Both the position numbers and the translations under genes were made by a program. Under the pieces are notes generated by a model that saw nothing but the letters and a program-made list of their open reading frames with translations, did not search any database and had not been told where the DNA came from. A stretch of DNA of 64,000 nucleotides from Actinomycetota bacterium (GTDB lineage Bacteria > Actinomycetota > AC-67), in contig JBAZZY010000010.1 in assembly GCA_041658565.1 (NCBI GenBank), positions 11,881 through 75,880 of the forward strand, written 5' to 3'. Shown here piece after piece: positions 1,312 to 29,978 of the stretch; positions within the stretch are counted from its first letter, which is position 1; every line of letters starts with the position of its first letter.

Positions 1312-2087
1312 CCGTCGAAAACCCGATGCTGGAAGTGCGCGGTCTGGTCTCCGGATTCGGCCACAACACCGTTCTGCACGGCGTGAACCTCACCGTCGGG
1401 CGTGGTGAGTTCGCCGCGCTGCTCGGACTCAACGGCGCCGGCAAGTCGGTCACGCTCAAGAACATCTCGGGTTTGCTCACCCCCTGGAAGGGCTCGGTCA
1501 TCCTCGACGGGCGCGACATCACCAAGCTCGACCCGGAAGACCGCGTGCTCGCCGGACTTGGTCACGTCCCCCAGGGACGCCAGGTATTCCCGCACCTGTC
1601 GGTGGCCGAGAACCTGCGCCTCGGCGGCGCGACCGTTCGCGACCGCGCGCGCTACAACGACGCGCTGGCGCGCGTATACGAGTCGTTCCCGCGCTTGGGC
1701 GAGCGCCGCGCGCAACTCGCCGGAACGCTCTCCGGCGGAGAGCAAGCCATGCTCGCGGTCGGGCGCGCGCTCATGCCCTCGCCGCGCCTGGTGCTGATCG
1801 ACGAGCCGTCGGCCGGCCTGTCCCCCATCGCGCTCGCGGAGTTGCTGGGAATCATCCGCGAGGTCAACCGCACCGGGGTGACCGTGCTGATGGTCGAGCA
1901 AAACACAACGTTTACCTTGCGGATCGCAGACACCATCCATGTGATGCAGAAAGGAAGCATCGTGCTGTCATCGGCCGTGTCTGAGTTGTCGGACCCGAAC
2001 GAACTGCTCGCGCACCTCGGCGTCGGCGCGCTCATGCGCGACCGCATCGCGCGCGAAGTTGCCGCGCGCCGCGGCGCGTCTTCCTGA
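1308..2087 (+). CDS. livF: Branched-chain amino acid ABC transporter ATP-binding protein (LivF-type)
   Basis: ATGA overlap with upstream gene. Walker A GLNGAGKS, signature LSGGEQAML, Walker B LVLIDEPS. About 259 aa, typical LivF size. Confidence 0.85.
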   Translation: MTVENPMLEVRGLVSGFGHNTVLHGVNLTVGRGEFAALLGLNGAGKSVTLKNISGLLTPWKGSVILDGRDITKLDPEDRVLAGLGHVPQGRQVFPHLSVAENLRLGGATVRDRARYNDALARVYESFPRLGERRAQLAGTLSGGEQAMLAVGRALMPSPRLVLIDEPSAGLSPIALAELLGIIREVNRTGVTVLMVEQNTTFTLRIADTIHVMQKGSIVLSSAVSELSDPNELLAHLGVGALMRDRIAREVAARRGASS

Positions 2088-2129
2088 GTCCCTACGCGCG
2101 CGCCGTCGACGGTATCGGCATGCCGCACC

Positions 2130-2759
2130 TCAAGGGACCACCACGCCGACCGAATTGGATCTCCAGCCGTCACCCCGGAATGCGGCTGCGCGCGACGGCC
2201 CGACGGCAACCCACGAACCGCTGACCAGATAACGTCCGGACGGCAAGGAGCCGCCGCCACAGACCGATCCGTCCCACGCGACCTCAGCGGAGCCCTCCTC
2301 CCCCGCGCGTAGCACCGCCACCCATGCCGGATGATCGAACTCGCGTCCGAAGGCCCACCGCCACACGACGCCGGAGGCATCCTCCACCCAGAAATCGAAC
2401 TCCTGCTCGCCCTGTTGGTAGGCCAAGTCTGTAGTCCCGCGGTTTCGCGCCGTGAGTCGAAATACCCAGTTGCCGGAATCCCCTTGGACATCCAACCGCA
2501 CCTCGACATCCTTGGGAGCCTTGCCGGCGCGTCCGGGCGATCCACAATCGATGGTCCGGCCAACCGAAGACAGGAGCCCGCGCGACGCATCCACCCTCGG
2601 CTCCTCAGTACCACGACCTCCGGATGAGCAGCCGGAGCCGACGAGAAGAACCAGAGCCAAGCCTGCGGCACCAAGTCGCCCGAGAGACGCACCGAACAGC
2701 CAAGAACTCACAGAATCGTCCACGTTCCACCCCGTTCGCGAGATCAGACTTAGGGCCAC
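2130..2759 (-). CDS. Putative lipoprotein with BsuPI-like (intracellular proteinase inhibitor) beta-sandwich domain
   Basis: N-terminal hydrophobic region ending in a Cys (LLVGSGC). C-terminal ~110 aa follow the BsuPI pattern (VFRLTARNRG…EFDFWVEDASGVVWRW…GRYLVSGSWVA). Lies next to an S1 protease gene. Confidence 0.45.
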   Translation of the reverse strand: MALSLISRTGWNVDDSVSSWLFGASLGRLGAAGLALVLLVGSGCSSGGRGTEEPRVDASRGLLSSVGRTIDCGSPGRAGKAPKDVEVRLDVQGDSGNWVFRLTARNRGTTDLAYQQGEQEFDFWVEDASGVVWRWAFGREFDHPAWVAVLRAGEEGSAEVAWDGSVCGGGSLPSGRYLVSGSWVAVGPSRAAAFRGDGWRSNSVGVVVP

Positions 2760-2965
2760 GCGCGGCAGTTCCCGGGGCGAGGCATGAGCCCGTCCGCTTC
2801 AGGACGCGGTCTACTCCAGGACTCACACCGACCACACGCGACGTTCTCCCAGCGCGGGTATCCCGCCGCCCCGTGCCATCCACGCAAACCCCCGGCGAGC
2901 CCCAGACCACTGGACACAAGGCATCCGACCCGAGCGCGCAGGTCACGAGTCCGCGCTCCGAACGC

Positions 2966-4222
2966 TCAGCAGCTTCCAGCTGCGCATGTGTTCAACGGTC
3001 CGAGTTCTGTCGATAGCTGGATGTTGCCGATCGCCGAGAAATACGAAGTATTCCAGTCGTTCTTGGGGCCGCCCCAGAGAATCCCTTTCAGGTTGACGTC
3101 TCCGACCGGCAGTCCCTCCCGCGCGATCATCGCGCTCCCGCTATCGCCATTGTAGGAAAACGCATTCGTCACGTACTGACAGAGCAGCGTGATGTTCGTC
3201 TCGTCAACATTGATGTCAAGGCATGTGCCCGTGACTGTTCCACTCGAGTAGCCGCTACTCGCACCGACTTTGGCAATTCCGCGTCCCGAGATCGGAGCAG
3301 TCTCACCCTTAACCGTGTACTTGCTCGTCCCGTTCCACGCGGGGACCGGGGGCGGGTCACCGGTTGTCGAAGACGCGGATGCGATCTTGCCTTGCTCAAC
3401 GGTGGCCGTGGGTTGCAGGCTGAAGAAGGCCGAGTCGCTGTATCGACACACTCGCCCTGTTGGGCATCCCATGATCCCTGCGGCGAATTCCGGATCGCGC
3501 TCCTCAGTCCCGACCCACACAGCCACAACTGGTTGCCCCATAACCGTGCCCTCTTCGCCACCCCACGTGTCTGTACAGTGGGAGTTGGTCACGAAACCCT
3601 GCATGGTGCCCATCTTCGCGTTAAACCCTAGGGTGCACCACCCCCACAGGGTCTCAATCTTCAAACCCCCCACCATTGGCCGATGATAATCCTGAAGATT
3701 GCTGCGAAACTGAGGTCGCCTGCCCCGAGCCAGTTTGATCGCGCCTGTCGGAATCCCGACCTCAGCAAGCCTGGCCTCAATCGCAGCCACCTGCTCTGGG
3801 GTGCCGTCCACTTCGATGCGGACGACATTGTCGCGCTCTGCCACATCAGTCGATACCGCCCCCGGCATCGACAGGACTTCCTGGGTCGCGCGGGCTTGCC
3901 ATGTCTTCAACTCCTCAAAGCGGTATGTGCTGGCGACCCCAATGACGGAAAACGTACGTAGGTCCCCGACGACATCGAACAGCGCGTCCGCTGCCTGGAT
4001 GGCAAGGGCTCGATCCCCGCCGACAACGCCGACATATACCCTGTGTAACGCCTCATCTACAAAGGCGCCTGCAAACTCGGGCACCTGGTGCGAAACCTCG
4101 AGGAACACGCCATCGCCAACTGCGGTCACCGATGTTGTTGGGGTGTCCGGTGACGATTCGCTCACCGCGGGAAGAATAAGAAGAAGCACTGTCATCGCGG
4201 AGACAAGGATTCGGCTCATCAC
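2966..4222 (-). CDS. Secreted S1-family serine protease (alpha-lytic protease/streptogrisin-like) with N-terminal propeptide
   Basis: Signal peptide MSRILVSAMTVLLLILPAVS (start chosen at this Met; ORF extends to 4342). Catalytic His context TNSHC, Ser context GDSGS, and C-terminal Cys pairs typical of the S1E family. GC content is clearly lower than surrounding genes. Confidence 0.75.
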   Translation of the reverse strand: MMSRILVSAMTVLLLILPAVSESSPDTPTTSVTAVGDGVFLEVSHQVPEFAGAFVDEALHRVYVGVVGGDRALAIQAADALFDVVGDLRTFSVIGVASTYRFEELKTWQARATQEVLSMPGAVSTDVAERDNVVRIEVDGTPEQVAAIEARLAEVGIPTGAIKLARGRRPQFRSNLQDYHRPMVGGLKIETLWGWCTLGFNAKMGTMQGFVTNSHCTDTWGGEEGTVMGQPVVAVWVGTEERDPEFAAGIMGCPTGRVCRYSDSAFFSLQPTATVEQGKIASASSTTGDPPPVPAWNGTSKYTVKGETAPISGRGIAKVGASSGYSSGTVTGTCLDINVDETNITLLCQYVTNAFSYNGDSGSAMIAREGLPVGDVNLKGILWGGPKNDWNTSYFSAIGNIQLSTELGPLNTCAAGSC

Positions 4223-4330
4223 GCGTCCCCCTTGGGATCGGCAACAGACAGGCAGGCGTTCCGTCCCGGTCGACGCTTTCGGATGCCGAGGATGGATGAG
4301 TGGGCCGACGCCAGGACAAAAGAGTAAATA

Positions 4331-4344
4331 ACACACACACACAC
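4331..4344. repeat. (AC)7 dinucleotide microsatellite about 110 bp upstream of the S1 protease start
   Basis: Direct reading: aaata-acacacacacacac-tgtc. Confidence 0.9.
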
Positions 4345-4404
4345 ACTGTCAAGGGCCCGACGAGGGGCTCGCGAACAACGCGATTCGCTGCTCGTAGGGA
4401 GGCC

Positions 4405-4537
4405 TACGCGCGCGCCGCGCGCGCGACGTTGTCGATCAGCATGGCCACGGTCATTGGGCCGACTCCGCCGGGGACAGGAGTGATCGCGCTCGCGATCTCG
4501 GACACCGGCCCGAAGTCCACGTCGCCGATCAAGCCGG
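4405..4537 (-). repeat. Duplicated folD 3' end (about 133 bp, ~96% identical to 5238..5370), direct repeat copy A; encodes only the last ~44 aa of FolD
   Basis: Near-identical nucleotide run beginning exactly at a stop codon (ctacgcgcgcgccgcgcgcgcgacgttgtcgatcagcatggcc…). Translation [44 protein letters not shown] equals the C-terminus of the intact FolD. Confidence 0.85.
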
Positions 4538-4765
4538 CGCGCGTCGGCGAACGAAGAACAGCCAAACCCAGTACATCGTTACGCCGAAGCCCGGCGCCAG
4601 CAGAATGAGGACGACCCACACCCAAACCCGCGCGCGCGCGGCGTGAACGAGCGACGCGATCGTCACCGACAGCAGGATCAGCGGCAGGACTACGGCCAGG
4701 CCACCTCGCCACGGATCCGACGAGGGGGCCCGCGTGACCTGCGCCCACAGAACTAGCGCGACCAC
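4529..4765 (-). CDS. Small hydrophobic hypothetical protein (78 aa, 2 TM segments); doubtful
   Basis: ORF between the folD repeats. Strongly hydrophobic, but its 3' end runs into repeat copy A. Confidence 0.2.
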
Positions 4766-5124
4766 CGATCCGCAAACCCCGGGTTGAATACCCGAACTCC
4801 AGAGGTTCTCATGGGCAGACTTCCTACGACACGGCTTCCGCTCGGGCTCGCATAGATCGGAATCGACGCTGCGTCCCTTCCCGGGCCAAGGGGATCGGCA
4901 TTCAGGTCATTCTTGTCGACATAGCCGATCGTCTCGCCGTTGGGACCCACCACGCCGATACGGGCCGGCATCTTCGAGAAATCACCCCGCCCGTCGGCGT
5001 CCACCCAAGAGGGCCTTGGTGGGGCGGACCCCGTATCCGTCACAGATGACACAGCGAAGATGCCGCTGAGCACAACGACGATCCCGAGAACGGTCCCGCG
5101 CCTGGATGAGGCTCGCATCTCCAT
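4753..5124 (-). CDS. Small secreted hypothetical protein (123 aa)
   Basis: N-terminal signal-like segment [20 protein letters not shown]. No recognisable domain. Sits inside the segment bracketed by the folD 3' direct repeats. Confidence 0.4.
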
Positions 5125-5237
5125 CCCCTCCTTGGCTCCGTCATGTCGACGGTGTCAACCGCCGCGTCACCGCCCGACTCCCGCGAGAATATTGATGCGG
5201 TGAATATCAATCAAGGGAGCCGCAACCCATGGCCCCG

Positions 5238-6089
5238 TTACGCGCGCGCCGCGCGCGCGACGTTGTCGATCAGCATGGCCACAGTCATTGGGCCGACTCC
5301 GCCGGGGACCGGAGTGATCGCGCTCGCAATCTCGGACACCGGCCCGAAGTCCACGTCGCCGATCAGGCCGCCTTCGGGGCCTTTGTTGGTTCCGACGTCG
5401 ATCACGACGGCGCCGGGCTTCACCATGTCCGCGGTGAGGGCCTTCGCGTGGCCCGCAGCGACAACGATGATGTCGGCCTCGCGCGTGTGGGAGCCGATGT
5501 CGCGCGTGCCGGTGTGGCACAACGTGACGGTCGCGTTCAGGCCCGGGCCCTTCTGTGACAACAGGATCGACAGCGGACGTCCCACCAAGTTCGAGCGCCC
5601 CACCACGACCACGTGACGGCCTTCGACATCGACTTCGCCGCGGTGCAACAACTCGACCACACCTGCCGGGGTTGCGGGAACGAAACGCGGCCGCCCCATG
5701 GCGAGCAGTCCCTGGTTCTCGGGGTGCAATCCGTCCACGTCCTTGGACGGCAGGATCGCGCACTGGATCTCGAAGGGGTCCGCGTCACACACCTTCGGAA
5801 GCGGCAGTTGCACGATGATGCCGTGCACGTTCGGGTCGGCGTTCAGTTCATCGACCGCGCGCAGGATCTCGTCTCGCTTGGCGTCTGCCGGAAGAACGCG
5901 GTCGAACGCGACCATACCGGCGGCAACCGCAGCCTTGTTCTTCATGCGCACATAGGTGGCGGATGCCGGATCCTCGCCGATGAGCAAGTCCACGAAACCC
6001 GGAGTCACACCGGCGCGCGCCACGCGTTCGGCGACCTCGGCGCGCACCTGCGCGGCGATCGCCTTTCCGTCGATTATTCGCGCTGCCAT
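5238..6089 (-). CDS. folD: Bifunctional methylenetetrahydrofolate dehydrogenase/cyclohydrolase FolD
   Basis: [19 protein letters not shown]…YVRMKNKA…GIIVQLPLP…[15 protein letters not shown]. Start taken at MAARIID (ATGA overlap with purH stop). The longer 526-aa ORF is an upstream in-frame extension artefact. Confidence 0.9.
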   Translation of the reverse strand: MAARIIDGKAIAAQVRAEVAERVARAGVTPGFVDLLIGEDPASATYVRMKNKAAVAAGMVAFDRVLPADAKRDEILRAVDELNADPNVHGIIVQLPLPKVCDADPFEIQCAILPSKDVDGLHPENQGLLAMGRPRFVPATPAGVVELLHRGEVDVEGRHVVVVGRSNLVGRPLSILLSQKGPGLNATVTLCHTGTRDIGSHTREADIIVVAAGHAKALTADMVKPGAVVIDVGTNKGPEGGLIGDVDFGPVSEIASAITPVPGGVGPMTVAMLIDNVARAARA

Positions 6090-7630
6090 CAGCCGTGCCG
6101 GAAGTGACGGGTGCCGGTGAAGACCATCGGGATGCCGTGCTCGTTCGCCGCGGCGATGACCTCGTCGTCGCGAACCGAGCCGCCCGGCTGGATCACCGCG
6201 GCGGCGCCCGCGGCGGCTCCGACATCGAGTCCGTCGCGGAAGGGGAAGAACGCGTCGGAGGCCATGACCGAGCCGCGCGCGCGATCCCCTGCCTTGCGCG
6301 CGGCGATCTCGGCCGCGTCCACTCGGCTCACTTGGCCGGCGCCGATCCCAACCGTCGCGCCGTCGGACGCAAGCACGATCGCGTTGGAGCGAACGTGTTT
6401 GCACGCGCGCCAGGCGAACAACAGGTCGCGCCACTGATCTTCGGTGGGCTCGGCGCGCGTCACCACGGTCATGTCGGCGCGGTCGTCGGCTGCGGTGTCG
6501 GGATCCTGAACCAAGAACCCACCCGAGATCCGGCGGAACGCGCGCTCGACCGGCGGCGTCGCGTCCAGCACCAACAAACGAAGGTTCTTTCGCTCCTGAA
6601 GCACCGCGATGGCACCCGCCTCGAATCCCGGCGCGACGATGCACTCGGTGAAGATCTCGGCGAGCATGCGCGCGGCGTCCTCGGTGACGGCGCGGTTGAA
6701 GGCGACCACGCTGCCGAAGGCCGACAGGCGATCGCAGTCCAGCGCGCGCGCGTATGCCTGCGCAACGTCGGCGCCGATCGCCAAGCCGCACGGAACCGCG
6801 TGCTTGATGATCGCGCACGCCGGCTCGGCGAAATCGAAGGCGGCGCCGAGGGCGGAGTCCAGGTCGAGGTAGTTGTTGAAGGAGAGTTCCTTGCCGTGGA
6901 GCTGGCGCGCGCGCGCCAGCGTCCCCGCTGCGGCGTCCTGCTCGACGTACAACGCGCCGCGCTGGTGGGGGTTCTCGCCGTAGCGCAGCAACTCGCCTGA
7001 GCGCTCAAGCGCAACGCTGATGCGCTCGGGGAACTCGATGTCTTGCTGCATCCAGGACGAGATCGCGGCGTCGTAGGACGCCGTCAAGGTGAAGGCCTCG
7101 GCCGCAAGCGCGCGCCGCGTAGTCGCAGTCAAACCGCCGAGACGGCGGATCTCGTCGGCGACGACCGCGTAGCGCCGCGGGTCCACCACGATGCCGACGC
7201 CGGAGTTGTTCTTCGCCGTCGCGCGCACCATCGCGGGACCGCCGATGTCGATCTGCTCGATCACCTCCGGCCACTCCTTGCCGGCCGCGACGGCCTCGCG
7301 GAACGGATACAAGTTCACCACCACGAGGTCGATCGGATCGATCCCGGCTTCGGCCAACTGACGCATGTGTTCAGGGTCGGCGCGGTTCGCGAGGATCCCG
7401 CCGTGGATGCGCGGGTGAAGGGTCTTAACTCGGCCGCCGAGCATCTCGGGGAATCCGGTGACTTCGGCAACCGGCGTGGTGGTCACGCCGTTCTCAGCGA
7501 GGTGCCGGGCGGTGGAGTCGGTGGCGATGATTTTGATCCCAAGGTCGGCGAGATCGCGACAGAACTCGGCGAGGCCGGTGCGGTCAGAAACGGAGACCAG
7601 GGCGGTTTTCACAGGCACGGTATCGGGCAT
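6089..7630 (-). CDS. purH: Bifunctional AICAR transformylase / IMP cyclohydrolase PurH
   Basis: 513 aa. N-terminal MGS-like domain ([11 protein letters not shown]…[16 protein letters not shown]) and C-terminal AICARFT domain. Confidence 0.95.
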
Positions 7631-8268: not shown

Positions 8269-8730
8269 ATGCTACCCGGTCGGCGCAGCACGGCCCGGCG
8301 GAGGTCTACCATGACGGCGATGGCACGCCCGATCGACTTCTCGGCACTCACGCGCGCGGAACGGCTCGTGCTCGCCTCGGGCGCACTCGGCCTCGTCAAC
8401 GGGATGATCCCTTGGTGGTACCGAGCCACGACCTCGCAGGGCACCTTCACCTACAACTCCGGATTGCGCGGATGGGGAGTCGTGGCGGTCCTTGCCGGGG
8501 CCGCTGCGGTCCTCGGTGCGCTGGCGCGCGGCTGGATCTGGCCGCGCTCCGCCCCCCGCCACGACGGCACCGCGTACCTCGTGCTTGCAGCCGTCGCGCT
8601 CGCGGCGCTGTCGGGAGAAGTGGGCGCGCGCGGAGCGTGGATCGGCGTCTGGGTCGCCCTCGCCCTCGCGTTCGCCCTGGGCGCCGCCGCCCTAGCCCGC
8701 CGCGCCGAACGCCGCCGCGGCTGGAGCTGA
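8269..8730 (+). CDS. Hypothetical membrane protein (153 aa, 3-4 TM)
   Basis: Hydrophobic segments. No recognisable motif. Confidence 0.45.
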   Translation: MLPGRRSTARRRSTMTAMARPIDFSALTRAERLVLASGALGLVNGMIPWWYRATTSQGTFTYNSGLRGWGVVAVLAGAAAVLGALARGWIWPRSAPRHDGTAYLVLAAVALAALSGEVGARGAWIGVWVALALAFALGAAALARRAERRRGWS

Positions 8731-8731
8731 A

Positions 8732-8959
8732 CTAAGAAACCCGGCGCTCGAGGCGCTCGGCGATCCAGACCTTGATCACCGACTGTCGAGTTACTCCAAG
8801 ACGCTTCGCCTCACGGTCGAGCGACTCGATCATCCAGGACGGGAAGTCCACGTTCACGCGTCGCTGCTCCTCCCCCGGCCTGCGAGCCTTGGACAGGTCG
8901 AGGTCGGCGGTGACGTCCTCGCCTTTGTCGAACTTACGGTCGAGGTTCTTCGCCTTCAT
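8732..8959 (-). CDS. brnA: BrnA-type antitoxin (ribbon-helix-helix)
   Basis: 75 aa with FDKGEDVTADLDLSKARR…VNVDFPSWMIESLDREAKRLGVTRQSVIKVWIAERL, diagnostic of BrnA. Overlaps the upstream toxin gene. Confidence 0.8.
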   Translation of the reverse strand: MKAKNLDRKFDKGEDVTADLDLSKARRPGEEQRRVNVDFPSWMIESLDREAKRLGVTRQSVIKVWIAERLERRVS

Positions 8960-9224
8960 AGATCGCCACCTCCTCAGCGCGCGCCCTGCGGACCGAAATC
9001 AACCTCACCCTTTGGTCGCGGTCAGTGCAGATCGCCGACCAATGCTGTCCGGCAATCTGCCCAATGACGACGTACCGGGGTTCGTCTTCCGTACGAGCCG
9101 GGATCTCGACGCGCATCTCGTCAGTCCAGATCGCCTGCGCATCGACGAAGTCGATGCCGTGCTTAGCCTTGTTCGTCTCGCTCTTGCGCCGATCGAACTC
9201 GAACTCCACACCCTTGAACTCCAC
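8934..9224 (-). CDS. brnT: BrnT-type toxin (DUF497 ribonuclease)
   Basis: 96 aa. FEFDRRKSETNKAKHGIDFVDAQAIW…YVVIGQ matches the BrnT/DUF497 signature. 26-bp overlap with brnA. Confidence 0.8.
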   Translation of the reverse strand: MEFKGVEFEFDRRKSETNKAKHGIDFVDAQAIWTDEMRVEIPARTEDEPRYVVIGQIAGQHWSAICTDRDQRVRLISVRRARAEEVAIYEGEEPRP

Positions 9225-9246
9225 GCCCAGCCCCTGGTCTCCTCAG

Positions 9247-9259
9247 TATAGAAACTATA
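9247..9259. promoter_or_regulatory. Palindrome tatagAAActata about 25 bp upstream of brnT; candidate BrnA operator
   Basis: Perfect 5-3-5 inverted repeat in an AT-rich intergenic stretch. Confidence 0.3.
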
Positions 9260-9381
9260 CCGTTCCGACGTCTAGATGACCAGAGACAGCTCGGATCCGG
9301 GTCGCCGCGCACCGGTTCCCGCTCCGACCCCGCAGGGACCCTGAAAATCCCACACTCAATGTTCGTTTTTCATGGTACACT

Positions 9382-10569
9382 GTGACCATGATCGAGCGGT
9401 CGCAGTGGCTGGCGGAGTTGAAGGCCGCTCTGCGGCGAAGCCGAGTTGTTGCCCTCATCGGCCCACGTCAGTCCGGCAAGACCACCCTTGCGCGCGCCCT
9501 CGTATCACCCGACTCTCCGAACTACTTCGATTTGGAGGATCCCCGCAGTCTCGCGCGTCTCAACGAACCGATGACCGCCCTCGCACCGCTCAAGGGAACA
9601 GTCGTCATCGACGAGATCCAGCGACGGCCGGAGTTGTTCCCCGTACTGCGCGTACTTGCCGACCGACACCCACTCCCTGCGCGGGTTCTCATTCTCGGCA
9701 GCGCAAGTCCTCCGCTGCTTCGCCAGTCCTCGGAAACGCTCGCCGGACGCCTCGAGACACTGACGCTCGCGGGGTTCGCGCTGGAGGAACTCGGCGCGGG
9801 GGTCCTTCGCAAACACTGGAGGCGAGGAGCATTTCCCCCCGCATACCTCGCTCGTTCCGAAAAGGCGAGCCTGATCTGGCGCGAGCAGTTCATCCACACC
9901 TTCCTCGAGCGCGACGTCCCGCAACTCGGCATCACCATCCCCTCGGCCACGCTTCATCGGTTCTGGACGATGCTGGCGCACTACCACGGAGGGGTCTGGA
10001 ACGCAGCAGCCTTTGCTCGCTCCCTCGGAGTCGCCGAGCCCACAGCGCGACGCTACCTGGATCTCCTCTCCGGGCTGTTCATGGTGCGGCAACTTCAGCC
10101 CTGGCACGAGAACTTGAAGAAGCGCCAGGTCAAGTCGCCGAAGGTGTACGTGCGCGATAGCGGTCTGCTTCACGCTCTCCTCGGTCTGACGACCGAGCAT
10201 GACGTCATGATGCATCCGAAGGTCGGTGCCTCATGGGAAGGCTACGCCCTCGAAGAGACGCTGAAAGCCGTGCGACCGGAGGCCGCCCACTTCTGGGCCA
10301 CACACACAGGCGCCGAACTCGATCTTCTGCTGGTCAAGAACGGAAGGCGCTACGGCGTGGAGTTCAAGCTCCAGGATGCCCCCCGCGTGACGCCCTCGAT
10401 GCGGATCGCGATCAGCGATCTTCAGCTGACTCGGCTGACGGTGCTGTACCCGGGAGACCAGTCCTACGAGCTCGATTCTCGCATCGCCGTTGTCCCTCTT
10501 GCGCATCTGGCAACGGCCGGAGCCGCCGCGGTGACGAAGAAACCGACACCGCGCAAAGCGGCGACCTGA
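9382..10569 (+). CDS. AAA+ ATPase of the COG1373 / AAA_14-DUF4143 family
   Basis: Walker A GPRQSGKTT, Walker B VVIDEIQ, and a C-terminal DUF4143-like region. The upstream region is unusually AT-rich for this genome. Confidence 0.75.
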   Translation: MTMIERSQWLAELKAALRRSRVVALIGPRQSGKTTLARALVSPDSPNYFDLEDPRSLARLNEPMTALAPLKGTVVIDEIQRRPELFPVLRVLADRHPLPARVLILGSASPPLLRQSSETLAGRLETLTLAGFALEELGAGVLRKHWRRGAFPPAYLARSEKASLIWREQFIHTFLERDVPQLGITIPSATLHRFWTMLAHYHGGVWNAAAFARSLGVAEPTARRYLDLLSGLFMVRQLQPWHENLKKRQVKSPKVYVRDSGLLHALLGLTTEHDVMMHPKVGASWEGYALEETLKAVRPEAAHFWATHTGAELDLLLVKNGRRYGVEFKLQDAPRVTPSMRIAISDLQLTRLTVLYPGDQSYELDSRIAVVPLAHLATAGAAAVTKKPTPRKAAT

Positions 10570-10600
10570 CCCCACCGGACCCCTGGCAACAGGGTGGTTT

Positions 10601-11698
10601 CTAGCAGCTGCCTTCGTAGTGGAGATTGTGCTGTTGCTGAACGCCGATCCCCACCCCGACTCCCCCAACCCCGACGAAGTAGGGAACACGGCTCTCGTTG
10701 TTGGCTCGGTTGGGGTCGCTGCCCGAGAAGACTGACGCGTGAACCCAGACGTCTCCAACGACCCCAACGGCGTTCCAGACGAAATCGCATCGCCGGGCAC
10801 CACCTGGATCCAACGCAACGGACACCTCGGCAAGGTCAACGCGGTAGTCCGAATCCGGCTGCGTGACCCACACCCTTAGTCGCGCCTCATCCGGTCCCGT
10901 CCCACGATTTGAAACGTCCACGTGGATTCGCCGACTCAACCCTGTTCCAACCGGCAGAGACATCACCCCGGTTCGGAGAACCTCCTCCTTCACAACCACG
11001 CGATCCACTCCGAAATCCGGCCACGGGACGGCAATCATGACAATGTCGATGTTGCCCGTCTCTTCCCCGAGGGCTACGTGTACGGGTGTCGCTCGAACAG
11101 CGGACGTCTCCCCCTCGTACCACTGGTCGTAGTGGGCGTAGTCGTAGCAGTCATAGAAGTAGACCGTGTATTCGCCGGCAGGAAGACCCCCGATCTCGTA
11201 TCCGCCGCCGGTGTCGGTAAACGTGACGCCGCCCATGGGCTTCCCGTCCATTGAGAAGACGTGCACGCAGATGGCTTGCAGGGCAGAACCGATCTGATCG
11301 ACGACCTCGCCCGATATCGATCCGCCGAACACCATTTGGGCATCGACACGGACTCCACCACCGGCGGGCACCGAGACGGGATCGGCAAAACCGCGGCTGG
11401 GCTTGCCCGAACCCCATTCCTCCAGATAGCGCGTGTAGTACCGACAGTCCGTGAACTGGACCTTGTATGTCCCCGGATCGACGTCCTTGAGCACATACCA
11501 GCCCCTATCGTCTGTCCAGGCCTGATAGGTCGGAACTGTCGCATCGTCGGCCCACGCCGACACGCAAATGTCCTTCAGCGCACCGACTTTGCCGGTGACG
11601 CCGCCATAGATGTTCCCAACGTCCTGCGCGCGCGCAGGGAGAGCGACGGTCAGCGCAAGCAGTGCGACGGTCGCTCCAATACGGAATCCCTTGGTCAT
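10601..11698 (-). CDS. Secreted protein with two internally duplicated beta-sandwich (carboxypeptidase-regulatory/Cna-B-like) domains
   Basis: Signal peptide MTKGFRIGATVALLALTVALPARA. Internal repeat GTYKVQFTDCRYYTRYLEEW vs GEYTVYFYDCYDYAHYDQWYEG. Confidence 0.55.
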   Translation of the reverse strand: MTKGFRIGATVALLALTVALPARAQDVGNIYGGVTGKVGALKDICVSAWADDATVPTYQAWTDDRGWYVLKDVDPGTYKVQFTDCRYYTRYLEEWGSGKPSRGFADPVSVPAGGGVRVDAQMVFGGSISGEVVDQIGSALQAICVHVFSMDGKPMGGVTFTDTGGGYEIGGLPAGEYTVYFYDCYDYAHYDQWYEGETSAVRATPVHVALGEETGNIDIVMIAVPWPDFGVDRVVVKEEVLRTGVMSLPVGTGLSRRIHVDVSNRGTGPDEARLRVWVTQPDSDYRVDLAEVSVALDPGGARRCDFVWNAVGVVGDVWVHASVFSGSDPNRANNESRVPYFVGVGGVGVGIGVQQQHNLHYEGSC

Positions 11699-11829
11699 GC
11701 TCTCTTTCTTCGCCGATCGAACCCCGAAACCCTGCTATCTCCCATGCGACGTCCCATCAAACCCGCGGGGAACTCTACGGGCTCTCGACCCGCGGGCGCC
11801 GGCCTAATTGGCAGACAAGAAACTCGTCC

Positions 11830-11938
11830 TGTTCGTCGCGCGATTGGAGCTCAAACCGCAACTGGACGCAATGACGGTGACGAGCGCGCCACCGACCATT
11901 ACGCCGATCCGATTCCGGAGACCCCCCACGGCCGACAG
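11830..11938 (-). pseudogene. Degenerate duplicate of the 5' end (signal-peptide region) of the beta-propeller lipoprotein gene at 12890..14152
   Basis: About 109 bp, ~93% identical to 14013..14121. Minus-strand translation …VGGLRNRIGVMVGGALVTVIASSCGLSSNRATN then stop, versus the intact gene's GGLRNRIGVMVGGALVAVIASGCGLSFNRATNS. Confidence 0.7.
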
Positions 11939-12048
11939 TTTAGATCTTCCCATCACGTACGCCGCAGACCTGCTTTGTTCTTACCTTGCGGCGAGCCGAA
12001 TGCTGTTGCCCCCGCCCGCCGAAGCGCTGATACCGGCCGCAATGGCGC

Positions 12049-12738
12049 TCAAGCCCCGTTCTTGGCTGGTCTGGTCCGGTGCGCGCGCCCGCGGCCTCGA
12101 GGGCTACTAACGAGCACCGCCGGACCCTCTTCGTGGCCCACATAGGGAACGGCGCTTTCCTGAACGATGCGCGCGACCTCGACCCGCTCCCGATCGCGCT
12201 CCAGGCGCGCGGCCATGCGACGCACTTCGAGAGCTCCGTTGACGGCCGCCAGGAAATCGGCTCCTTTGCCGGCCGGGAGTCCCTCACCGAGCGACGCGGC
12301 GAACCAACGAGTCACGTCGGACCACCGCCAAATGCGCCCTCGGGACTTGAGGTGCGATATCGGGGACGGGAACCCACCCGGGCCGCGCTCGCCGGCTATC
12401 AGAAGTCGTACGCTCTCGCGGGTCCGGCCGGTTCGCTCGGCGATGTCCGCAGCCGTCACGAGATCCTCAGGCTCCACCCGGATCACTCGCAGACCGGGAA
12501 CGGCCGACTCGACTGCCCGCTTCGCCGATCCGACGGCTTCGGCCAACGAGCGAGACCGCCGCGTGAAATCGGCGTACTGGCATCCGTCCACTTCCCCGAA
12601 CGTTGCGTCACCGCAACCGGCATCAAAGAGAGCGTCAACCGCCGCGTCACTGAGCGCGTCCGCGCCCTCCAAAACCAAGGTGAACTCGTAGGTGGCCATC
12701 TCGCTATCTCCTGCCCGCCGCGACGCATCGTGCTTCAC
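12049..12738 (-). CDS. Hypothetical protein with putative helix-turn-helix (likely start MATYEF… near 12699)
   Basis: HTH-like segment TAADIAERTGRTRESVRLLIAG. No family recognised. The 3' end reads antisense through the permease-fragment repeat. Confidence 0.4.
   Translation of the reverse strand: MKHDASRRAGDSEMATYEFTLVLEGADALSDAAVDALFDAGCGDATFGEVDGCQYADFTRRSRSLAEAVGSAKRAVESAVPGLRVIRVEPEDLVTAADIAERTGRTRESVRLLIAGERGPGGFPSPISHLKSRGRIWRWSDVTRWFAASLGEGLPAGKGADFLAAVNGALEVRRMAARLERDRERVEVARIVQESAVPYVGHEEGPAVLVSSPRGRGRAHRTRPAKNGA
12064..12110 (+). repeat. Degenerate duplicate of the 3' end of the ABC-2 permease gene (16606..16661)
   Basis: …ggtctggtccgg[11-bp indel]tgcgcgcgcccgcggcctcgagggctactaa versus …gcgcgcgcccgcggcctcgaaggctactag. 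Encodes …ARARGLEGY*. Confidence 0.65.
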
Positions 12739-12889
12739 CCCAGCGATGTCCCGAAGCGCGCGGACTCACCCACCAGCCGCGCGACTCCGCAAACCGCAAA
12801 GCCGCCTCAACCTCCTTCTTGGGATGGCGCGCGCGCACCCGATCATCGCTCGCCCGTTGGCACTTGTCAACGGCTCGGCGCGGGCCCGT

Positions 12890-14152
12890 CTAACGCGTCG
12901 ACAGGAAGTACGACCTCTGCACCCAAGGAAGCGAGAGGCTCTTCCTGGTGCCGGTCGTCAGATCAACTCGGAAAACGGGCCCGATGGCGGCCCACGGAGT
13001 CTCCCAGCAATCATCGACATTGCATGGACGGGTCTTCGTCAGCACCAGTTCGTCGTTCGACACCCACATCGCATCAACCGCATCATCGGCGACCTTCCGC
13101 TCGGTTCCGACCGCAAGATCGAAAACGTACGCTGCGGGGTGCTTGCCGGACGTGTCGTACGCCAAACGAGTCCCGTCGGGTGAGACCGAGGGCCGCATGG
13201 CGTCGTGACGGACCGCCAGAGTCTGCCTCGACCCAGTCACCGGATCGAACGAATACCACACGCGGCGGGAGTCCAGCTCGGGGGTGGCAAGCTTGTACGA
13301 GTCGCGATAGGTGCTTCGGTAGTAGATCCGGGATCCGTCTGGCGACCACGTGGCAAACGTGCCCTCCCCGGGCGGAGCAACATCGCTGCCGTCCGGTCGA
13401 ACGACGAACATCGTGACCCCGGTGAGCCCGTCGTCGGAGTAGAGAATCTCCTGGACGAGAAGCATCCGCCCATCCGGCGACCAAGATGCTTCCGCATCCT
13501 CGTCCTCTGCCGACTCGCGCAGGGCAGCGTCTCCGAGAGCACCTAGCCGGTGCACCTTGCCGGTCGCACGGCAGTAGTGCATCGCCGTCAGCGCTACCGA
13601 GGACACGTCAACTTCCTGAGACTGAGACCGCGTGAGACTCAGTGCCGACCCGGTGGGATCCCACGCGCCGGGGGTGAAATCCCCTTCGAGCAGGACACGG
13701 CTCTTCCCGGTCCGCAGATCAATCTCTATAACCCGGGATTCGTCATAATCGCCCAGCCCGTAGCTGATCGTTTCCGGACCGGAGAAGTCGGCACCATTGA
13801 CAGCGTGCTTCCCACCTCGCACCAGGCGCCGAGACTTGTCGGTCTTCATGTCGTAGATCCAGAGGTCGTTCGCATAGCCCACGCCGGTGGGCCGCGCAAA
13901 GAGGATCCGCTCGACGCCGCCGGGCGGACGGTCGATGGCAGCGCCGGGGACGACCGGACAGGGACCCACCGACGCTGCCGCGGATGGCGCAGGACTCGAA
14001 GACCCGATGGCGCTGTTCGTCGCGCGATTGAAACTCAAACCGCAACCGGATGCAATGACGGCGACGAGCGCGCCACCGACCATTACGCCGATCCGATTCC
14101 GGAGACCCCCCACGGTCGGAAGTATAGGGCGGCTCCCGGGGGCGCTCATCAT
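12890..14152 (-). CDS. Lipoprotein with TolB-like (PD40/WD40-like) beta-propeller repeats
   Basis: Lipobox-like VAVIASGCG after a positively charged n-region. Repeated SPDGxxL motifs (WSPDGRMLLV, WSPDGSRIYY, VSPDGTRLAY). Start uncertain (14152 or 14083). Confidence 0.7.
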   Translation of the reverse strand: MMSAPGSRPILPTVGGLRNRIGVMVGGALVAVIASGCGLSFNRATNSAIGSSSPAPSAAASVGPCPVVPGAAIDRPPGGVERILFARPTGVGYANDLWIYDMKTDKSRRLVRGGKHAVNGADFSGPETISYGLGDYDESRVIEIDLRTGKSRVLLEGDFTPGAWDPTGSALSLTRSQSQEVDVSSVALTAMHYCRATGKVHRLGALGDAALRESAEDEDAEASWSPDGRMLLVQEILYSDDGLTGVTMFVVRPDGSDVAPPGEGTFATWSPDGSRIYYRSTYRDSYKLATPELDSRRVWYSFDPVTGSRQTLAVRHDAMRPSVSPDGTRLAYDTSGKHPAAYVFDLAVGTERKVADDAVDAMWVSNDELVLTKTRPCNVDDCWETPWAAIGPVFRVDLTTGTRKSLSLPWVQRSYFLSTR

Positions 14153-14287
14153 CGGCGTGCACTGAGGACGGACGACGCATTGAAGTTCCACACTCGTCGG
14201 CACCGTGCCTCTATTTCTGGAGATGCTCCGCAGCGACAGAGGTAGGCTCTGCTCGGCCGTACGCAAGTCGAAGCGCTGGGATCAGCA

Positions 14288-15076
14288 ATGATCGCGTGTG
14301 AGAGTGTCTCAAAGACGTACCGGATCCGAGACCGCCTCGGGTGGTTCCGGCGCGGTCCAGCGCGCGCCATCCCGGCGCTGCACGAGGTCTCGCTCAGCAT
14401 CGAGCAAGGTGAGATCGTCGGGCTGCTCGGCCCGAACGGCGCCGGCAAGACCACCTTGCTGAAGATCTTGTGCACGCTGGTGCTTCCAGACGCCGGGCGC
14501 GCGCACGTCGGCGGCTTCGATGTCGCATGCGACGCGCGCGCGGCGCGCATGGCGATCGGGTTCGTTCCGGCGAGCGATCGCAGTCTGCACTGGAAGCTCA
14601 CGGCCCGCGAGAACCTCGCGCTCTACGGCGGGCTCTACAACCTGTCCCGCTCCACCGTGCGCTCACGTTCGCATGGGACCCTAGCGAACGTCGGCCTCGC
14701 GGACTTCGTCGACGTCCCTGTCGAGAAGTTCTCAACCGGGATGCGCAAGCGCCTCATGCTCGCGCGCGCCTTGCTGCACAACCCGGCTGTGCTCCTTCTG
14801 GACGAACCGGGAAGCGGCCTGGACGTGCTCGGTAAGCGCGAGATGTGGACATCGCTGCGGCAAGCGGCCGCCGAGCACGGCGTCACCACGCTCATTGCGA
14901 CGCACGACATGGAAGAGGCCGAAGTACTTCCCGAGCGACTGCTGCTCATCGATCGCGGAACTTTGCGCGCGGACGGGACGGCCACCGATCTGCGCCGGCG
15001 CGCAGGGCGGGAAGATCAAAGCCTCGGCGACGCATTCCTCGCTCTCACCGGAAGCTCACTTGAGGACTCCGAATGA
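14288..15076 (+). CDS. ABC transporter ATP-binding protein (ABC-2/DrrA-like)
   Basis: Walker A GPNGAGKTT, signature FSTGMRKRLMLARAL, Walker B LLLDEPGSGLD. Confidence 0.85.
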   Translation: MIACESVSKTYRIRDRLGWFRRGPARAIPALHEVSLSIEQGEIVGLLGPNGAGKTTLLKILCTLVLPDAGRAHVGGFDVACDARAARMAIGFVPASDRSLHWKLTARENLALYGGLYNLSRSTVRSRSHGTLANVGLADFVDVPVEKFSTGMRKRLMLARALLHNPAVLLLDEPGSGLDVLGKREMWTSLRQAAAEHGVTTLIATHDMEEAEVLPERLLLIDRGTLRADGTATDLRRRAGREDQSLGDAFLALTGSSLEDSE

Positions 15077-15831
15077 GAGCTGTGCTTGCCCTGCTGCGCG
15101 CCGAGATGCTGCGCCGGCGCGCGTATCCGCTTCAGATCCTCGGCCTGACGCTCAGCCCCTTTCTTGTCGTCGGCCCGTTCGTGTTCGTCGGGACGATGTT
15201 CCCGGACCCGAAGGTGCGAACATCGGTCGCCGTGGGCACGATCCTTTGGTACTGGCTCTCGATGTTGTTCTGGGGAGTCGGTTTCGGAATCCGCGAAGAG
15301 ATGGAAGAGGGCGTATTCGAGAGCATCGCGGCAACACCGGCGCGCCTCCAGTCGCTGCTGGCCGCCAAGGCGCTGGACGTCCTCGCCGGCAACATCTACT
15401 TGACTGTGTGCACCTTTGCGCTCCTTCGCTGGACGGCGAACGTGACGGTGGCCGTCCCGTGGAGCCGCATCGTGCCGGTAGTGATGGCGGCCGCGTTCGC
15501 GCTTTCGGCGCTCGCCGTGGCTTACGCGGCACTCGTTCTGGCTACCCGGCAGGCTTCTGGGATTGGATCCATGACGCAGCAAGCTCTCGGAGCGCTCTCC
15601 GGCATGACGGCGCCCGTCTCGACGCTCCCGCGCGCCGCCCGATGGGCAAGCGCAGCCGTGCCGCTCACGTACGCAATCCAGGGCGCGCGCGCGGCCCTGG
15701 AAGGACGATGGCCGTGGAGCGAAATAGCCGTCTTGGCGGCCTTCGGAACCGGGATGCTGGTAGTCGGTCTGGCGGTCTTTGCGCACGCCGAGCGGCGCGC
15801 GCGCACTACGGGAACGCTCGGGGAGTATTGA
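15073..15831 (+). CDS. ABC-2 family transporter permease
   Basis: 252 aa, six hydrophobic segments. ATGA overlaps on both sides. Confidence 0.75.
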   Translation: MRAVLALLRAEMLRRRAYPLQILGLTLSPFLVVGPFVFVGTMFPDPKVRTSVAVGTILWYWLSMLFWGVGFGIREEMEEGVFESIAATPARLQSLLAAKALDVLAGNIYLTVCTFALLRWTANVTVAVPWSRIVPVVMAAAFALSALAVAYAALVLATRQASGIGSMTQQALGALSGMTAPVSTLPRAARWASAAVPLTYAIQGARAALEGRWPWSEIAVLAAFGTGMLVVGLAVFAHAERRARTTGTLGEY

Positions 15832-16661
15832 TGGCGGCTTTTGAAGCGACGTTGCGAGGGTCGGCAGCCCTGGCTGCAGCATCGCTTCGCGGACGTTCTC
15901 GCTACCGGCTGGACTACATCACGTCCACCGTCGGTCCACTGCTGTGGGTTATCCCCGCGCTCCTCACGCTTCGCTTTGCTGAAAGCTTGGGAATGGGTGA
16001 TGCGTTCAAGGATGCAACCGGGATCGCGCGTTCGCGCGCGCCGCTTTACTTCCTCGCCGGTGCCGTCTACTGGAACTACGTGGAGGGCGTCTGGAGCCTC
16101 GCCATGAACGTGCGCGGAGCGATGCGCAGCGGAACGCTCGAACCGCTTTGGTGCACGCCGGTCCCGCGCCTCGCGCTGGTTGCCGGCTGGTCGGCGGGAA
16201 CCCTGGCCTCAATCACCCTGCAGTCGGCAATCGCGTTCGCCCTCCTCGCGATCGTGGGTGGAACGCCGCCGGTCGTTTCCTGGGTGGGGGTCGCTGCGCT
16301 GTTGGCGGGATCGGTGCTGGCCGCATACGGCTTCGCGTTCGTGTTGATCGGCCTCACTCTTCGTTTCCGAGATGCCGAATCGATCGTGAGCATGCTCGGG
16401 AACGCCGCTCCGCTTCTCGGGGGCGTCATCTTCCCCGTGGCGCTTCTGCCACTCCCCCTGCGCCTTCTCAGCTATCTCTTCCCATTCACCTACGGCGCAG
16501 ACTTGCTCCGTTCGCTCTTGGCCGGAAGCCGCACACTGCTGCCCGCACACGTCGAGGTGCTGGTCCTGGCCGCCATGGCAGTCGTGCTCCCGGTGCTCGG
16601 CTGGTGGGGTCTGGTCCGGCTCGAGCGCGGTGCGCGCGCCCGCGGCCTCGAAGGCTACTAG
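15831..16661 (+). CDS. ABC-2 family transporter permease (second)
   Basis: About 276 aa, polytopic. Start MAAFEATLRG overlaps the upstream stop (ATGA). C-terminus …RARGLEGY is the copy duplicated at 12064..12110. Confidence 0.75.
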   Translation: MAAFEATLRGSAALAAASLRGRSRYRLDYITSTVGPLLWVIPALLTLRFAESLGMGDAFKDATGIARSRAPLYFLAGAVYWNYVEGVWSLAMNVRGAMRSGTLEPLWCTPVPRLALVAGWSAGTLASITLQSAIAFALLAIVGGTPPVVSWVGVAALLAGSVLAAYGFAFVLIGLTLRFRDAESIVSMLGNAAPLLGGVIFPVALLPLPLRLLSYLFPFTYGADLLRSLLAGSRTLLPAHVEVLVLAAMAVVLPVLGWWGLVRLERGARARGLEGY

Positions 16662-16778
16662 CCGATTGCTCGACCGGTCATCGTTACGCAATGCGCGCGA
16701 ACGACCGGAAAAGCAAGGACCTAACAAATAGCCTTTTCGGGGCATGGAATCGGCTTCGCACCGTGAAGAGAATGAGGC

Positions 16779-18032
16779 ATGACCCAAGGACATAAGGCCT
16801 CACTCGAGCAGGAGATGAGCCTGCTGCTCGAACTCAGTCGCGACGTTTCGAGCACACTTGACCTACAGGCCGTCCTCGACAAGAGCCTTGCGTCGCTGCG
16901 GCGTCTGATCGTGTTCGACGGTGGGTCAATTCAGTTGGTTGTCGACGGCGCCTTGCAGTTGGCCGCCACCGACCCCCCCGCGCCCCCCGAGGCGTACGCA
17001 GTTCGGCTACCGCTCGGCCGCGGACTCGGCGGCCGAATCGCCGTCACTTGCGAACCGCTCTACTGTCCCGACGCGACCGCCGACGCGCGCGCCGACCCCG
17101 AAGGACTCGCCAAGGCGGCGACGGCCGGAATCCGCAGCTACTTCGGTGCACCCCTCATCGAGCACGGAGCAGCGATCGGCCTCGTTCAACTCGATTCGGG
17201 CACCGTCGATGCGTTCCCGGCAAACGCGCGCGCATTCGTACTGGCGTTCCTCCCCACGATCACCGCCGCCGTGCAAAACGCTCGACTGTTCAATCGCGAG
17301 GTCGAAACGCTCAACCTCCTTCGCGAAGCGGAGAACATCAAGAGCGACTTCCTCGCACTCGTGTCGCACGAATTGCGGACCCCGCTCACCGTGGTGATCG
17401 GGATAGCCGACACCCTCGCCGGGCACACGGCGGAGTTCGACGCCGACACGATCAAGGACCTCGCCCGACGGATCGGCCGAAACGGCCAGGTACTGATGCG
17501 CCTGATCGAGGATCTGCTCGACCTGTCCACGATCGAACGTGACGTGATGAACATTGAAGTAACCTCATTGGACGCAGAAGAGTTGATCCGTGAGGTCGCC
17601 GACGGCATCCACGCCGAACGCCCACTGCGCATCCGGATCGCGCCGGGATTGCCGCCGGTCCTGGCGGATGCCGACCGACTGACACAGGTGTTGCGAAACC
17701 TCCTCAGCAACGCGGTGAAGTTCTCACCGCCGGGCACGCCAATCGAGGTACACGCCGAGATGGAAGGCGATCGAGTCGCAGTGAGCGTTACGGATCATGG
17801 CCTCGGCATCCCCAAGGAGTTCCAGGAGCAAGTCTTCCAACGGTTCTTCCAGGTTGAGCGAACGACGACGCGCTCAGTCGGCGGAATAGGCATCGGGTTG
17901 TACCTCGTGCAACATCTATGCAAGCTCATGGGCGCTTCCGTGCGCATCGACAGCTCGCCGGGGCACGGCAGCACCTTCACCGTCGTGCTCGCGGCGGCTG
18001 CCAGCGGGGCCAACGCTCTGCTCGATGCATGA
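16779..18032 (+). CDS. Cytoplasmic sensor histidine kinase (GAF-HisKA-HATPase)
   Basis: GAF-like N-terminus. H-box [14 protein letters not shown]1, G2 boxes (NLLSNAVKFS…DHGLGIP…GGIGIGL). No TM segments. Confidence 0.8.
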   Translation: MTQGHKASLEQEMSLLLELSRDVSSTLDLQAVLDKSLASLRRLIVFDGGSIQLVVDGALQLAATDPPAPPEAYAVRLPLGRGLGGRIAVTCEPLYCPDATADARADPEGLAKAATAGIRSYFGAPLIEHGAAIGLVQLDSGTVDAFPANARAFVLAFLPTITAAVQNARLFNREVETLNLLREAENIKSDFLALVSHELRTPLTVVIGIADTLAGHTAEFDADTIKDLARRIGRNGQVLMRLIEDLLDLSTIERDVMNIEVTSLDAEELIREVADGIHAERPLRIRIAPGLPPVLADADRLTQVLRNLLSNAVKFSPPGTPIEVHAEMEGDRVAVSVTDHGLGIPKEFQEQVFQRFFQVERTTTRSVGGIGIGLYLVQHLCKLMGASVRIDSSPGHGSTFTVVLAAAASGANALLDA

Positions 18033-18207
18033 GCAGCCCTATCGAACCGGCCCGGGCGCCGGGACACCTCGGACGTTTCGCCTACTCCTTCGGCTGCGCG
18101 TCAACCCGATCCGATCATTCGATGACCATCCTGCCCGGAATCACTTCAGCCACGCGCTACGGCGCTCGATGCCTACGAGCGAGATGGGGTAATAGGGGAG
18201 GACTACC

Positions 18208-20679: not shown

Positions 20680-20729
20680 CCCTACAACTACGCCGGCACT
20701 CCGGCTCGTCGCATCCCCGCCACTCGCCG

Positions 20730-23303: not shown

Positions 23304-23306
23304 AAC

Positions 23307-25055: not shown

Positions 25056-25202
25056 AGCAATGCCTCCGCGTCGTTCTCGTACGTCTATGTACGGAGCCCA
25101 CCAATCCCGGAAACATGGCCTCCCGCCGTCATTCCACGCGCGCGCAGCCACTACGCGAGCTATCGATCTCTCTAACTACGCCGGCGTGATCGCTCCATGC
25201 TT

Positions 25203-25222
25203 CATGAGGCGGCTGCCTCATG
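25203..25222. promoter_or_regulatory. 20-bp dyad catgaggc-N4-gcctcatg in the divergent intergenic region between the W-tailed subtilase and the LuxR-type regulator; candidate LuxR/FixJ-family box
   Basis: Perfect 8-bp inverted arms. Each arm contains the self-palindrome tcatga. Confidence 0.3.
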
Positions 25223-25276
25223 AGGCAGGGGCCTCCGCAGGCCGACTCTGATCATTGAGGGCTTTGTATTGACGAG

Positions 25277-25969: not shown

Positions 25970-26033
25970 CCGGATCCGGCCGGTGCCTCCTGTCAGAAAC
26001 CCTCGCGCGCGGCGCGGTGGCAGACACTCCGCG

Positions 26034-26666: not shown

Positions 26667-26719
26667 ACGCCTAACTATACACCCTAGAGACGACCAGCGT
26701 CTGCAGGGCATTCAAGACT

Positions 26720-29889: not shown

Positions 29890-29978
29890 CTGCAGGCACG
29901 GCGGCCTCCGTTTGTCCTGTCGGGTTCTGCCGGTGATGATACGGGCGCTTGTGAAAGCGCCGCAAAATAGGGGAATCC

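Follow-up and report, generated by a model that had tools for sequence, protein, structure and literature searches.

Why does the 3′ end of folD occur twice in quick succession in the DNA of an uncultured member of the Actinomycetota, with two small genes lodged between the copies? The stretch analyzed herein, referred to as the window, comprises 64 kb of an 87-kb metagenome contig assembled with MEGAHIT (k141_606729; ENA ERZ27247322), which has also been deposited as an Actinomycetota metagenome-assembled genome. As described below, the duplicated folD end is best read as the ordinary scar of incoming DNA that has recombined via its own copy of the gene end. The data give good support to insertion by recombination at the 3′ end of folD, whereas a site-specific crossover and a decayed state of the inserted element are plausible readings.

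The 3′ End of folD Is Present Twice

The intact folD gene (5238-6089, minus strand) is called as a gene in the source contig, where it is the last member of a purN-purH-folD cluster. Its 283-aa product carries both Pfam domains of the enzyme, THF_DHG_CYH (E 2e-64) and THF_DHG_CYH_C (E 5e-33), and is a 100% match to protein P0002. The working last 43 codons of this gene (copy B; 5239-5370, minus strand, with the stop codon TAA at 5238-5240) recur further downstream as a displaced 3′ fragment (copy A; 4405-4536, minus strand, with the stop codon TAG at 4404-4406), such that each copy reads on the minus strand as the same 43 codons followed by a stop. A repeat search, a MAFFT alignment, and blastn agree on a direct repeat of 132 nt per copy, with 128 of the 132 positions identical (97%; blastn E ~1e-60) and an offset of 834 nt from start to start. 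When the stop codons are counted, 129 of 134 positions match, in agreement with the original prediction that the folD end and its stop are present twice at about 96% identity. No third long copy is present in the 64-kb window, nor in the 5 kb of contig sequence that precede the window start.

The limits of the homology coincide with recognizable boundaries. One limit lies exactly at the folD stop codon (TAA in copy B and TAG in copy A), past which the two sequences show no likeness. The other lies at Gly-Gly codons near residue 240 of FolD, and this limit also falls within the last three codons of the second of the two genes carried by the insert. Just outside the repeat block, the MAFFT alignment leaves only four nucleotides (CGGC) in common between the two copies.

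Copy B completes folD, and copy A is a dead, nonfunctional fragment. The copy A segment (4404-4536) yields a Pfam match only to positions 114-157 of the 160 positions in the profile of the C-terminal domain. An ORF that runs in frame with copy A (4404-4775) was considered as a real fusion gene and was rejected, given that the GC content at third codon positions (GC3) 5′ of copy A is 0.42-0.60 in that frame and that codon-position GC marks the sequence before the junction as noncoding.

A duplication of this kind might also be created in the computer, if the assembler had stitched the DNAs of two co-occurring strains into one contig. The evidence does derive from one metagenome contig, assembled with MEGAHIT and lacking an independent second assembly, and the 3% divergence between the copies is strain-like. 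However, the longest exact run common to copies A and B is 44 nt, which is far below 141, the final assembly k-mer that we take to be denoted by the k141_ prefix under MEGAHIT naming. At that length, each 132-nt copy together with both its flanks should fit one read-derived k-mer. Because no exact shared run exceeds 44 nt when the final k-mer is 141, an assembly artifact is scarcely credible. Furthermore, the 701 nt between the copies are unique in the window, and even a mixture of strains would call for real DNA molecules in which the module abuts a folD end on both sides.

The Insert Carries a Two-Gene Module

The DNA between the copies holds a secreted-protein ORF and a tiny membrane-protein ORF, as had been predicted, and both are called as genes on the minus strand. 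The first (4753-5118/5124) encodes a protein of 121-123 aa with a signal peptide, and the second (4529-4765) encodes a 78-aa protein with two transmembrane segments. The two genes overlap by 13 nt, and the TGA stop codon of the second sits 8 nt inside copy A. Ahead of the first gene is a 119-nt stretch (5119-5237, minus strand) that was read from the sequence as a noncoding leader, and that carries the motif AAGGAGG before the ATG at 5118.

An AT-rich inverted repeat (5191-5211; ATTGAT-N9-ATCAAT) is located between the end of folD and the first codon of the gene for the secreted protein, in surroundings of 65-70% GC, and by its sequence looks like a possible operator. A scan of positions 1900-6200, including the leader of the insert, for consensus promoters and terminators returned nothing useful.

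A word-indexed search with the secreted protein recovered only the contig of the window itself as a near-identical match. An exhaustive phmmer search revealed a family of 69 members at E<=1e-3, mostly 105-125 aa in length, whose alignment exhibits the conserved motif PxWVxxDGxVDxSKMPARxP. The same gene pair, consisting of a secreted homolog followed by a small membrane homolog, is present in two unrelated contigs, wherein the membrane protein is 131 aa (L087/L088) or 67 aa (L089/L090) long. Neither folD nor an integrase gene is near the pair in these two contigs. The insert is a complete, conserved, and self-contained two-gene module. The GC3 values of the two genes are different in character: that of the secreted-protein gene (0.71) is accessory-like, whereas that of the membrane-protein gene (0.81) is host-like, as the core genes measured range from 0.81 to 0.87.

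The Two Copies Differ by Silent Changes

Copies A and B differ at five positions, which are found in the codon pairs TTG/CTG, ATC/ATT, CCT/CCG, ACC/ACT, and TAG/TAA. The four differences within the coding sequence are all synonymous, and the fifth exchanges one stop codon for another. Synonymous changes constitute 28% of the possible single changes in the repeat stretch, and the chance that four of four changes are synonymous under neutrality is P ~0.009 after weighting for the three transitions and the single transversion among them. This silent-only divergence points to two folD ends that diverged while functional, as parts of working genes in two lineages, and that were later brought together in one genome by recombination.

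The identity of the donor lineage can be narrowed further. Both copies carry the lineage-specific residues MLID...AARA, whereas relatives whose FolD proteins are 77-82% identical carry MLMD...AAGA or a close variant. Since these residues are common to both copies, the donor would have been a very close relative, or a member of a sister lineage.

One alternative is that the duplication arose in place, wherein replication slippage or break repair copied a 132-nt piece of folD past a native module, and the copies subsequently drifted. No foreign DNA is needed for this process, which would give both copies the same lineage-specific residues and would accommodate the host-like GC3 of 0.81 for the second gene of the module. 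However, a dead copy should gain mostly nonsynonymous changes, and the pattern of four silent changes in four with retention of a stop codon has a probability of ~0.009 or lower under such drift. A copying event in place would also have had to place its boundary exactly at the stop codon, and the module follows folD in no relative examined. We consider that duplication in place has very little chance of being correct.

Gene Content Downstream of folD Varies Among Relatives

No relative with a FolD more than 82% identical is present in the databases that were searched. Besides the protein of the window itself, the nearest FolD in a collection of 5.8 billion proteins is 82% identical. A degenerate DNA pattern representing the lineage-specific FolD C terminus gave no match in JGI metagenome contigs. 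A scan of GTDB genomes produced only three relatives, at 71-75% FolD identity, and none of these has a second folD end.

The relatives are at the family level and show the following layouts. In L082, L083, and L084 (80-81% FolD identity), L091 (76%), and L002 (71%), the purN-purH-folD cluster is followed by zero to two variable genes and then by genes for a CBS protein and citrate synthase on the opposite strand, with sucCD also located upstream wherever the contig extends that far. The arrangement in L001 (75%) is like that of the window, with ABC ATPase genes ~3.2 kb past folD, but the three genes between are entirely different. In L092 (74%), a ceramidase-like gene follows folD. Thus, the genes directly downstream of folD are different in every relative examined, and none has the two-gene module there. 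Whichever insertion route holds, the spot just after folD is a hotspot of gene content in this family.

Two other features of the contig deserve mention. First, ~19 kb of accessory genes (~8500-27400) part sucCD (27463-30386) from purN-purH-folD in the window. In L082 and L084, sucCD directly adjoin purN, and in L091 ~2.4 kb of other genes lie between. The 19-kb block includes genes for BrnT/BrnA, AAA_14, lipoproteins, an ABC-2 transporter, a histidine kinase, two S8 peptidases, a GGDEF-EAL protein, and a CcdA-like antitoxin. Second, the contig carries another, unrelated gene-end duplication, in the form of a 115-nt direct repeat (11829-11943 and 14013-14127; 92% identity) that brackets two genes. 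One of the two forms the start region, with the lipoprotein signal peptide, of a gene on the minus strand (12890-14083). Its partner is found in a stub ORF of 50 aa (11804-11956), which lies upstream of the gene at 10601-11698. The differences between these two copies include amino-acid changes.

A Single Crossover May Have Inserted the Module

We propose that a small DNA carrying the two-gene module and its own last 43 codons of folD entered the 3′ end of the resident folD gene by a single crossover. Copy B, brought in by a very close relative's DNA, would now end folD, and the resident end, copy A, would have been displaced 834 nt downstream as a dead fragment. The enzyme behind the crossover would most probably have been a site-specific recombinase, either encoded elsewhere or since lost. 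If so, the insert would be an integrase-less islet flanked by att sites, similar to the units called CIMEs, and the adjacent protease and inhibitor genes described below would represent an older unit at the same site, as in tandem accretion. Taken as a whole, this account is offered tentatively, as one that is slightly more apt to fail in some part than to hold throughout.

A site-specific origin is favored by the finding that both limits of the unit are functional boundaries, namely the stop codon of folD and the final codons of the cargo, and by the existence of a possible tandem partner, marked by a 15-nt sequence. It is disfavored by the outcome of our searches, which recovered no recombinase, no related element, and no record of folD as a target. 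Pfam searches revealed no integrase, recombinase, or transposase in the ORFs of positions 2100-6100, and none is present in the annotation of the 20 kb around the site (L081). Likewise, a Pfam scan of 40 further ORFs between 15 and 64 kb, which covered the longer ORFs, revealed no integrase, recombinase, or transposase; for six of the ORFs scanned, no Pfam match of any kind was obtained. The insert carries no integration or transfer genes according to gene calls and Pfam. An integrase pseudogene was also sought in the insert and none was found; because only 119 nt of the bracketed DNA are noncoding, there is no room for one.

Insertion of a transposon or insertion sequence does not fit, given the repeat length of 132 nt (a target-site duplication would be short, at 2-15 bp), the lack of inverted repeats at the ends of the insert among those listed by the repeat search, and the lack of a transposase.

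Searches for mobile elements that use folD were similarly negative. No related element, whether an ICE, an IME, or a prophage, was encountered among the first 84 loci, among 80 IMG/VR loci, in the phage records that were inspected, or in the searchable literature. The same two sets of loci, the first 84 and the 80 from IMG/VR, contain no second genome with a duplicated folD end. The searchable literature provides no record of folD as an attachment site, although such a search is confounded by the word "fold." The two phage records that were inspected for folD 3′ fragments (H1 and H25) are UNVERIFIED_ORG entries that carry no annotation and whose origin is uncertain. In the IMG/VR scans, nearly all matches are to full-length folD.

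Among the IMG/VR contigs, two from other phyla carry the C-terminal 109 codons (L112, 5374-6168) or ~87 codons (L128, 3707-4594) of folD fused in frame to a phage-like ORF. Host-type genes follow in each case (prlC in one and an argG fragment in the other). These loci may be phage/host junctions inside folD.

Original predictions that site-specific integration into folD had taken place, and that the insert is a decayed or cargo-only remnant left after loss of an integrase, hold in part. The structure matches a Campbell-type single crossover, which leaves one copy as the end of the gene and displaces the other, and the insert indeed has no integrase. Site specificity and decay are each plausible.

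A serious rival dispenses with a site-specific enzyme. In this scenario, homology-facilitated illegitimate recombination (HFIR) or plain homologous recombination took place with DNA from a sister strain in which folD is naturally followed by the module. Linear donor DNA would have been anchored by RecA in purH/folD, and its far end would have been joined illegitimately within the recipient folD at codon 240, which would leave over the last 43 codons of the recipient gene. In a variant of this scenario, a circularized fragment of 834 bp would have entered by a homologous single crossover, for which 132 nt at 97% identity is a short RecA substrate.

Several observations are in keeping with a sister-strain donor. 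No recombinase gene was found, and the route demands precisely the very close donor that the sequences indicate. The homology would naturally stop at the stop codon if the strains differ past folD, as every relative does. The mechanism is documented in transformable bacteria (PMC6382021). The 115-nt gene-end duplication elsewhere in the contig suggests recurring events, and it slightly favors a general habit of recombination over an enzyme specific for folD. However, two boundaries would have to match by coincidence in this scenario. The point where the two strains cease to be alike would have to be the stop codon itself, and the illegitimate joint would have to land in the final three codons of the second module gene, which keeps the module intact. 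The scenario also leaves unexplained the 15-nt copy of the folD terminus at 2091-2105, and the lineage is not known to be naturally competent. On balance, we regard recombination with sister-strain DNA as possible but rather unlikely.

A Protease Islet Might Be an Older Unit at the Same Site

Beyond copy A lies an islet (2106-4402) that encodes a predicted secreted serine protease and a predicted lipoprotein with an inhibitor-type domain. The protease gene (2966-4219, minus strand) is of the S1, or trypsin-like, type, with weak Pfam matches to both Nal1_C and Trypsin_2. The GC content of this stretch (0.57-0.62) is lower than that of its surroundings, and the GC3 of the protease gene is 0.68. 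The protease has its nearest homolog at 43% identity and belongs to a family with a scattered distribution among phyla. Downstream of the protease gene, a called gene (2130-2594, minus strand) encodes a lipoprotein with a BsuPI-type proteinase-inhibitor domain (Pfam BsuPI, E 4e-8), and has a GC3 of 0.70-0.74.

It had originally been predicted that the mobile element might have extended as one unit to about position 2100. The location of the islet contradicts this proposal. In any insertion by a single crossover, the inserted DNA lies between the repeats, and the islet is outside the bracket formed by copies A and B. Therefore, the inserted unit corresponds to 4537-5370 rather than to 2100-5238.

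Nevertheless, the boundary guessed independently near position 2100 coincides with a short sequence, designated site C (2091-2105, minus strand), that is an exact 15-nt match to the terminus of copy A (CCTACGCGCGCGCCG). Site C comprises the last four folD codons, the stop codon TAG, and the next two nucleotides of copy A, in the same orientation. It begins 3 nt past the stop codon of an ABC ATPase gene (2085-2087), at the distal edge of the protease/inhibitor islet. Site C could be a vestigial third copy of the folD end. Because an exact folD-terminus 15-mer is present at its distal edge, the islet is suggestive of a second, older unit that may have inserted in tandem at the same folD site.

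The weight of this match depends on how often such matches arise by chance. Site C is one of four matches of at least 15 nt to the copy A segment in 128 kb (both strands); another of the four is on the other strand at 615-629. One chance 15-nt match is only 1.5 kb from site C, and the tract is GC-rich. The chance expectation of a direct match in the intergenic spot occupied by site C is ~0.001-0.01, for a match that was noticed post hoc. No similarity extends past the 15 nt of site C, and no short terminal repeat is present beside the ABC gene in the relative L001. In addition, two tandem units would need different crossover positions, which counts against a site-specific tandem account.

Site C also bears on the order in which the two folD ends arrived. 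The stop codon of copy A has the context TAGG, which is the same as that of site C, whereas the stop codon of copy B (context TAAC) and the sequence downstream of it are unlike both copy A and site C. Because the protease islet is joined to copy A, and because the stop context of copy A matches site C, we infer that copy A is the older resident end and that copy B is the incoming end.

The last folD codons form a near-perfect 19-nt palindrome of alternating C and G, CGCGCGCGC-C-GCGCGCGCG (inverted repeat I22), which is found at 4407-4425 and 5241-5259, and all three repeat copies (A, B, and site C) end beside this CG palindrome. A hairpin or Z-DNA is possible for such a sequence, which might be prone to breakage.

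Upstream of the protease gene, an (AC)8 tract at 4331-4346, or (GT)8 on the minus strand, is positioned exactly between TTGACA (4352-4347) and the AT-rich TATTTA/TACTCT. As far as the sequence allows such a reading, this tract could be a slipped-strand switch that alters the length of a promoter spacer. The promoter-like elements around it were not called by the scan for consensus promoters.

We also considered a more far-reaching possibility, in which the 3′ end of folD serves this lineage as a dedicated docking site, where a recombinase acting in trans stacks very small, integrase-free modules (of 0.7 kb and 2.3 kb) in tandem. Such a locus would amount to a cassette array in the chromosome whose recombination site is an essential gene's end in place of attC/attI, with each module bringing or reusing a gene end. 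This reading appears improbable.

Comparison with Known Insertions at Gene Ends

The best-known precedent for this type of structure is the element e14 in icd of Escherichia coli K-12. According to PMC13626634, which cites Hill et al. 1989, e14 supplies a new end for the gene, and the old end persists as the icdC fragment. The e14 element (and phage 21) at icd and the folD insert are alike in that a replacement 3′ end is provided for an essential metabolic gene while the original end survives on the far side as a fragment that has no promoter. Like the folD copies, the ends at icd differ mainly by silent changes, and at either locus recombination between the ends would restore a single gene (PMC13626634).

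The two elements are otherwise distinct. The e14 element is ~15 kb in length, carries its own integrase, and excises on SOS induction. In contrast, the folD insert has 0.7 kb with two cargo genes and no recombinase, its target is folD, its host is an uncultured member of the Actinomycetota, and it is known from sequence alone. Thus, of the hallmarks of an insertion of the e14/icd type, the folD locus exhibits the gene-end repeat and the divergence expected of functional ends, and has no integrase inside the bracket.

Similarities to CIMEs are also evident. The repeats of ICESt1 are ~27 nt in length, whereas the folD repeat is longer, at 132 nt. CIMEs are integrase-less units that keep both att sites, and they undergo tandem accretion at the 3′ ends of genes (PMC5704250). 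Like the ICESt1-related CIMEs at fda in Streptococcus thermophilus, the folD insert is an islet between direct repeats of the end of its target gene and is devoid of integration and transfer genes. A counterpart to their tandem accretion would be the possible second unit at the folD site, for which the evidence is the 15-nt match. In contrast to CIMEs, the folD insert has no known parent among ICEs or IMEs, and our searches found neither such a parent nor an integrase with the corresponding specificity.

Products of HFIR, which is known from Acinetobacter, Pseudomonas stutzeri, and pneumococcus, provide the closest parallel to acquisition from a sister strain, since they too place foreign DNA beside a homologous anchor from a close relative without an enzyme from a mobile element (PMC6382021). 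However, HFIR products usually replace recipient DNA, whereas the folD locus shows a neat duplication.

Implications

Given these parallels, the folD insert is best viewed as a new instance of a known scar, and not as a new kind of system. The two leading readings would carry different lessons. If the site-specific reading is true, then folD joins the housekeeping genes whose 3′ ends serve as docking sites, and an att-flanked, integrase-less unit can be as small as 834 bp, including the repeat. If instead the module was acquired from sister-strain DNA, then the locus would illustrate cleanly, in nature, how one strain gains genes from another through one-sided homologous recombination. On either reading, the presence or absence of the 834-bp unit is a simple marker for strain variation in the source community.
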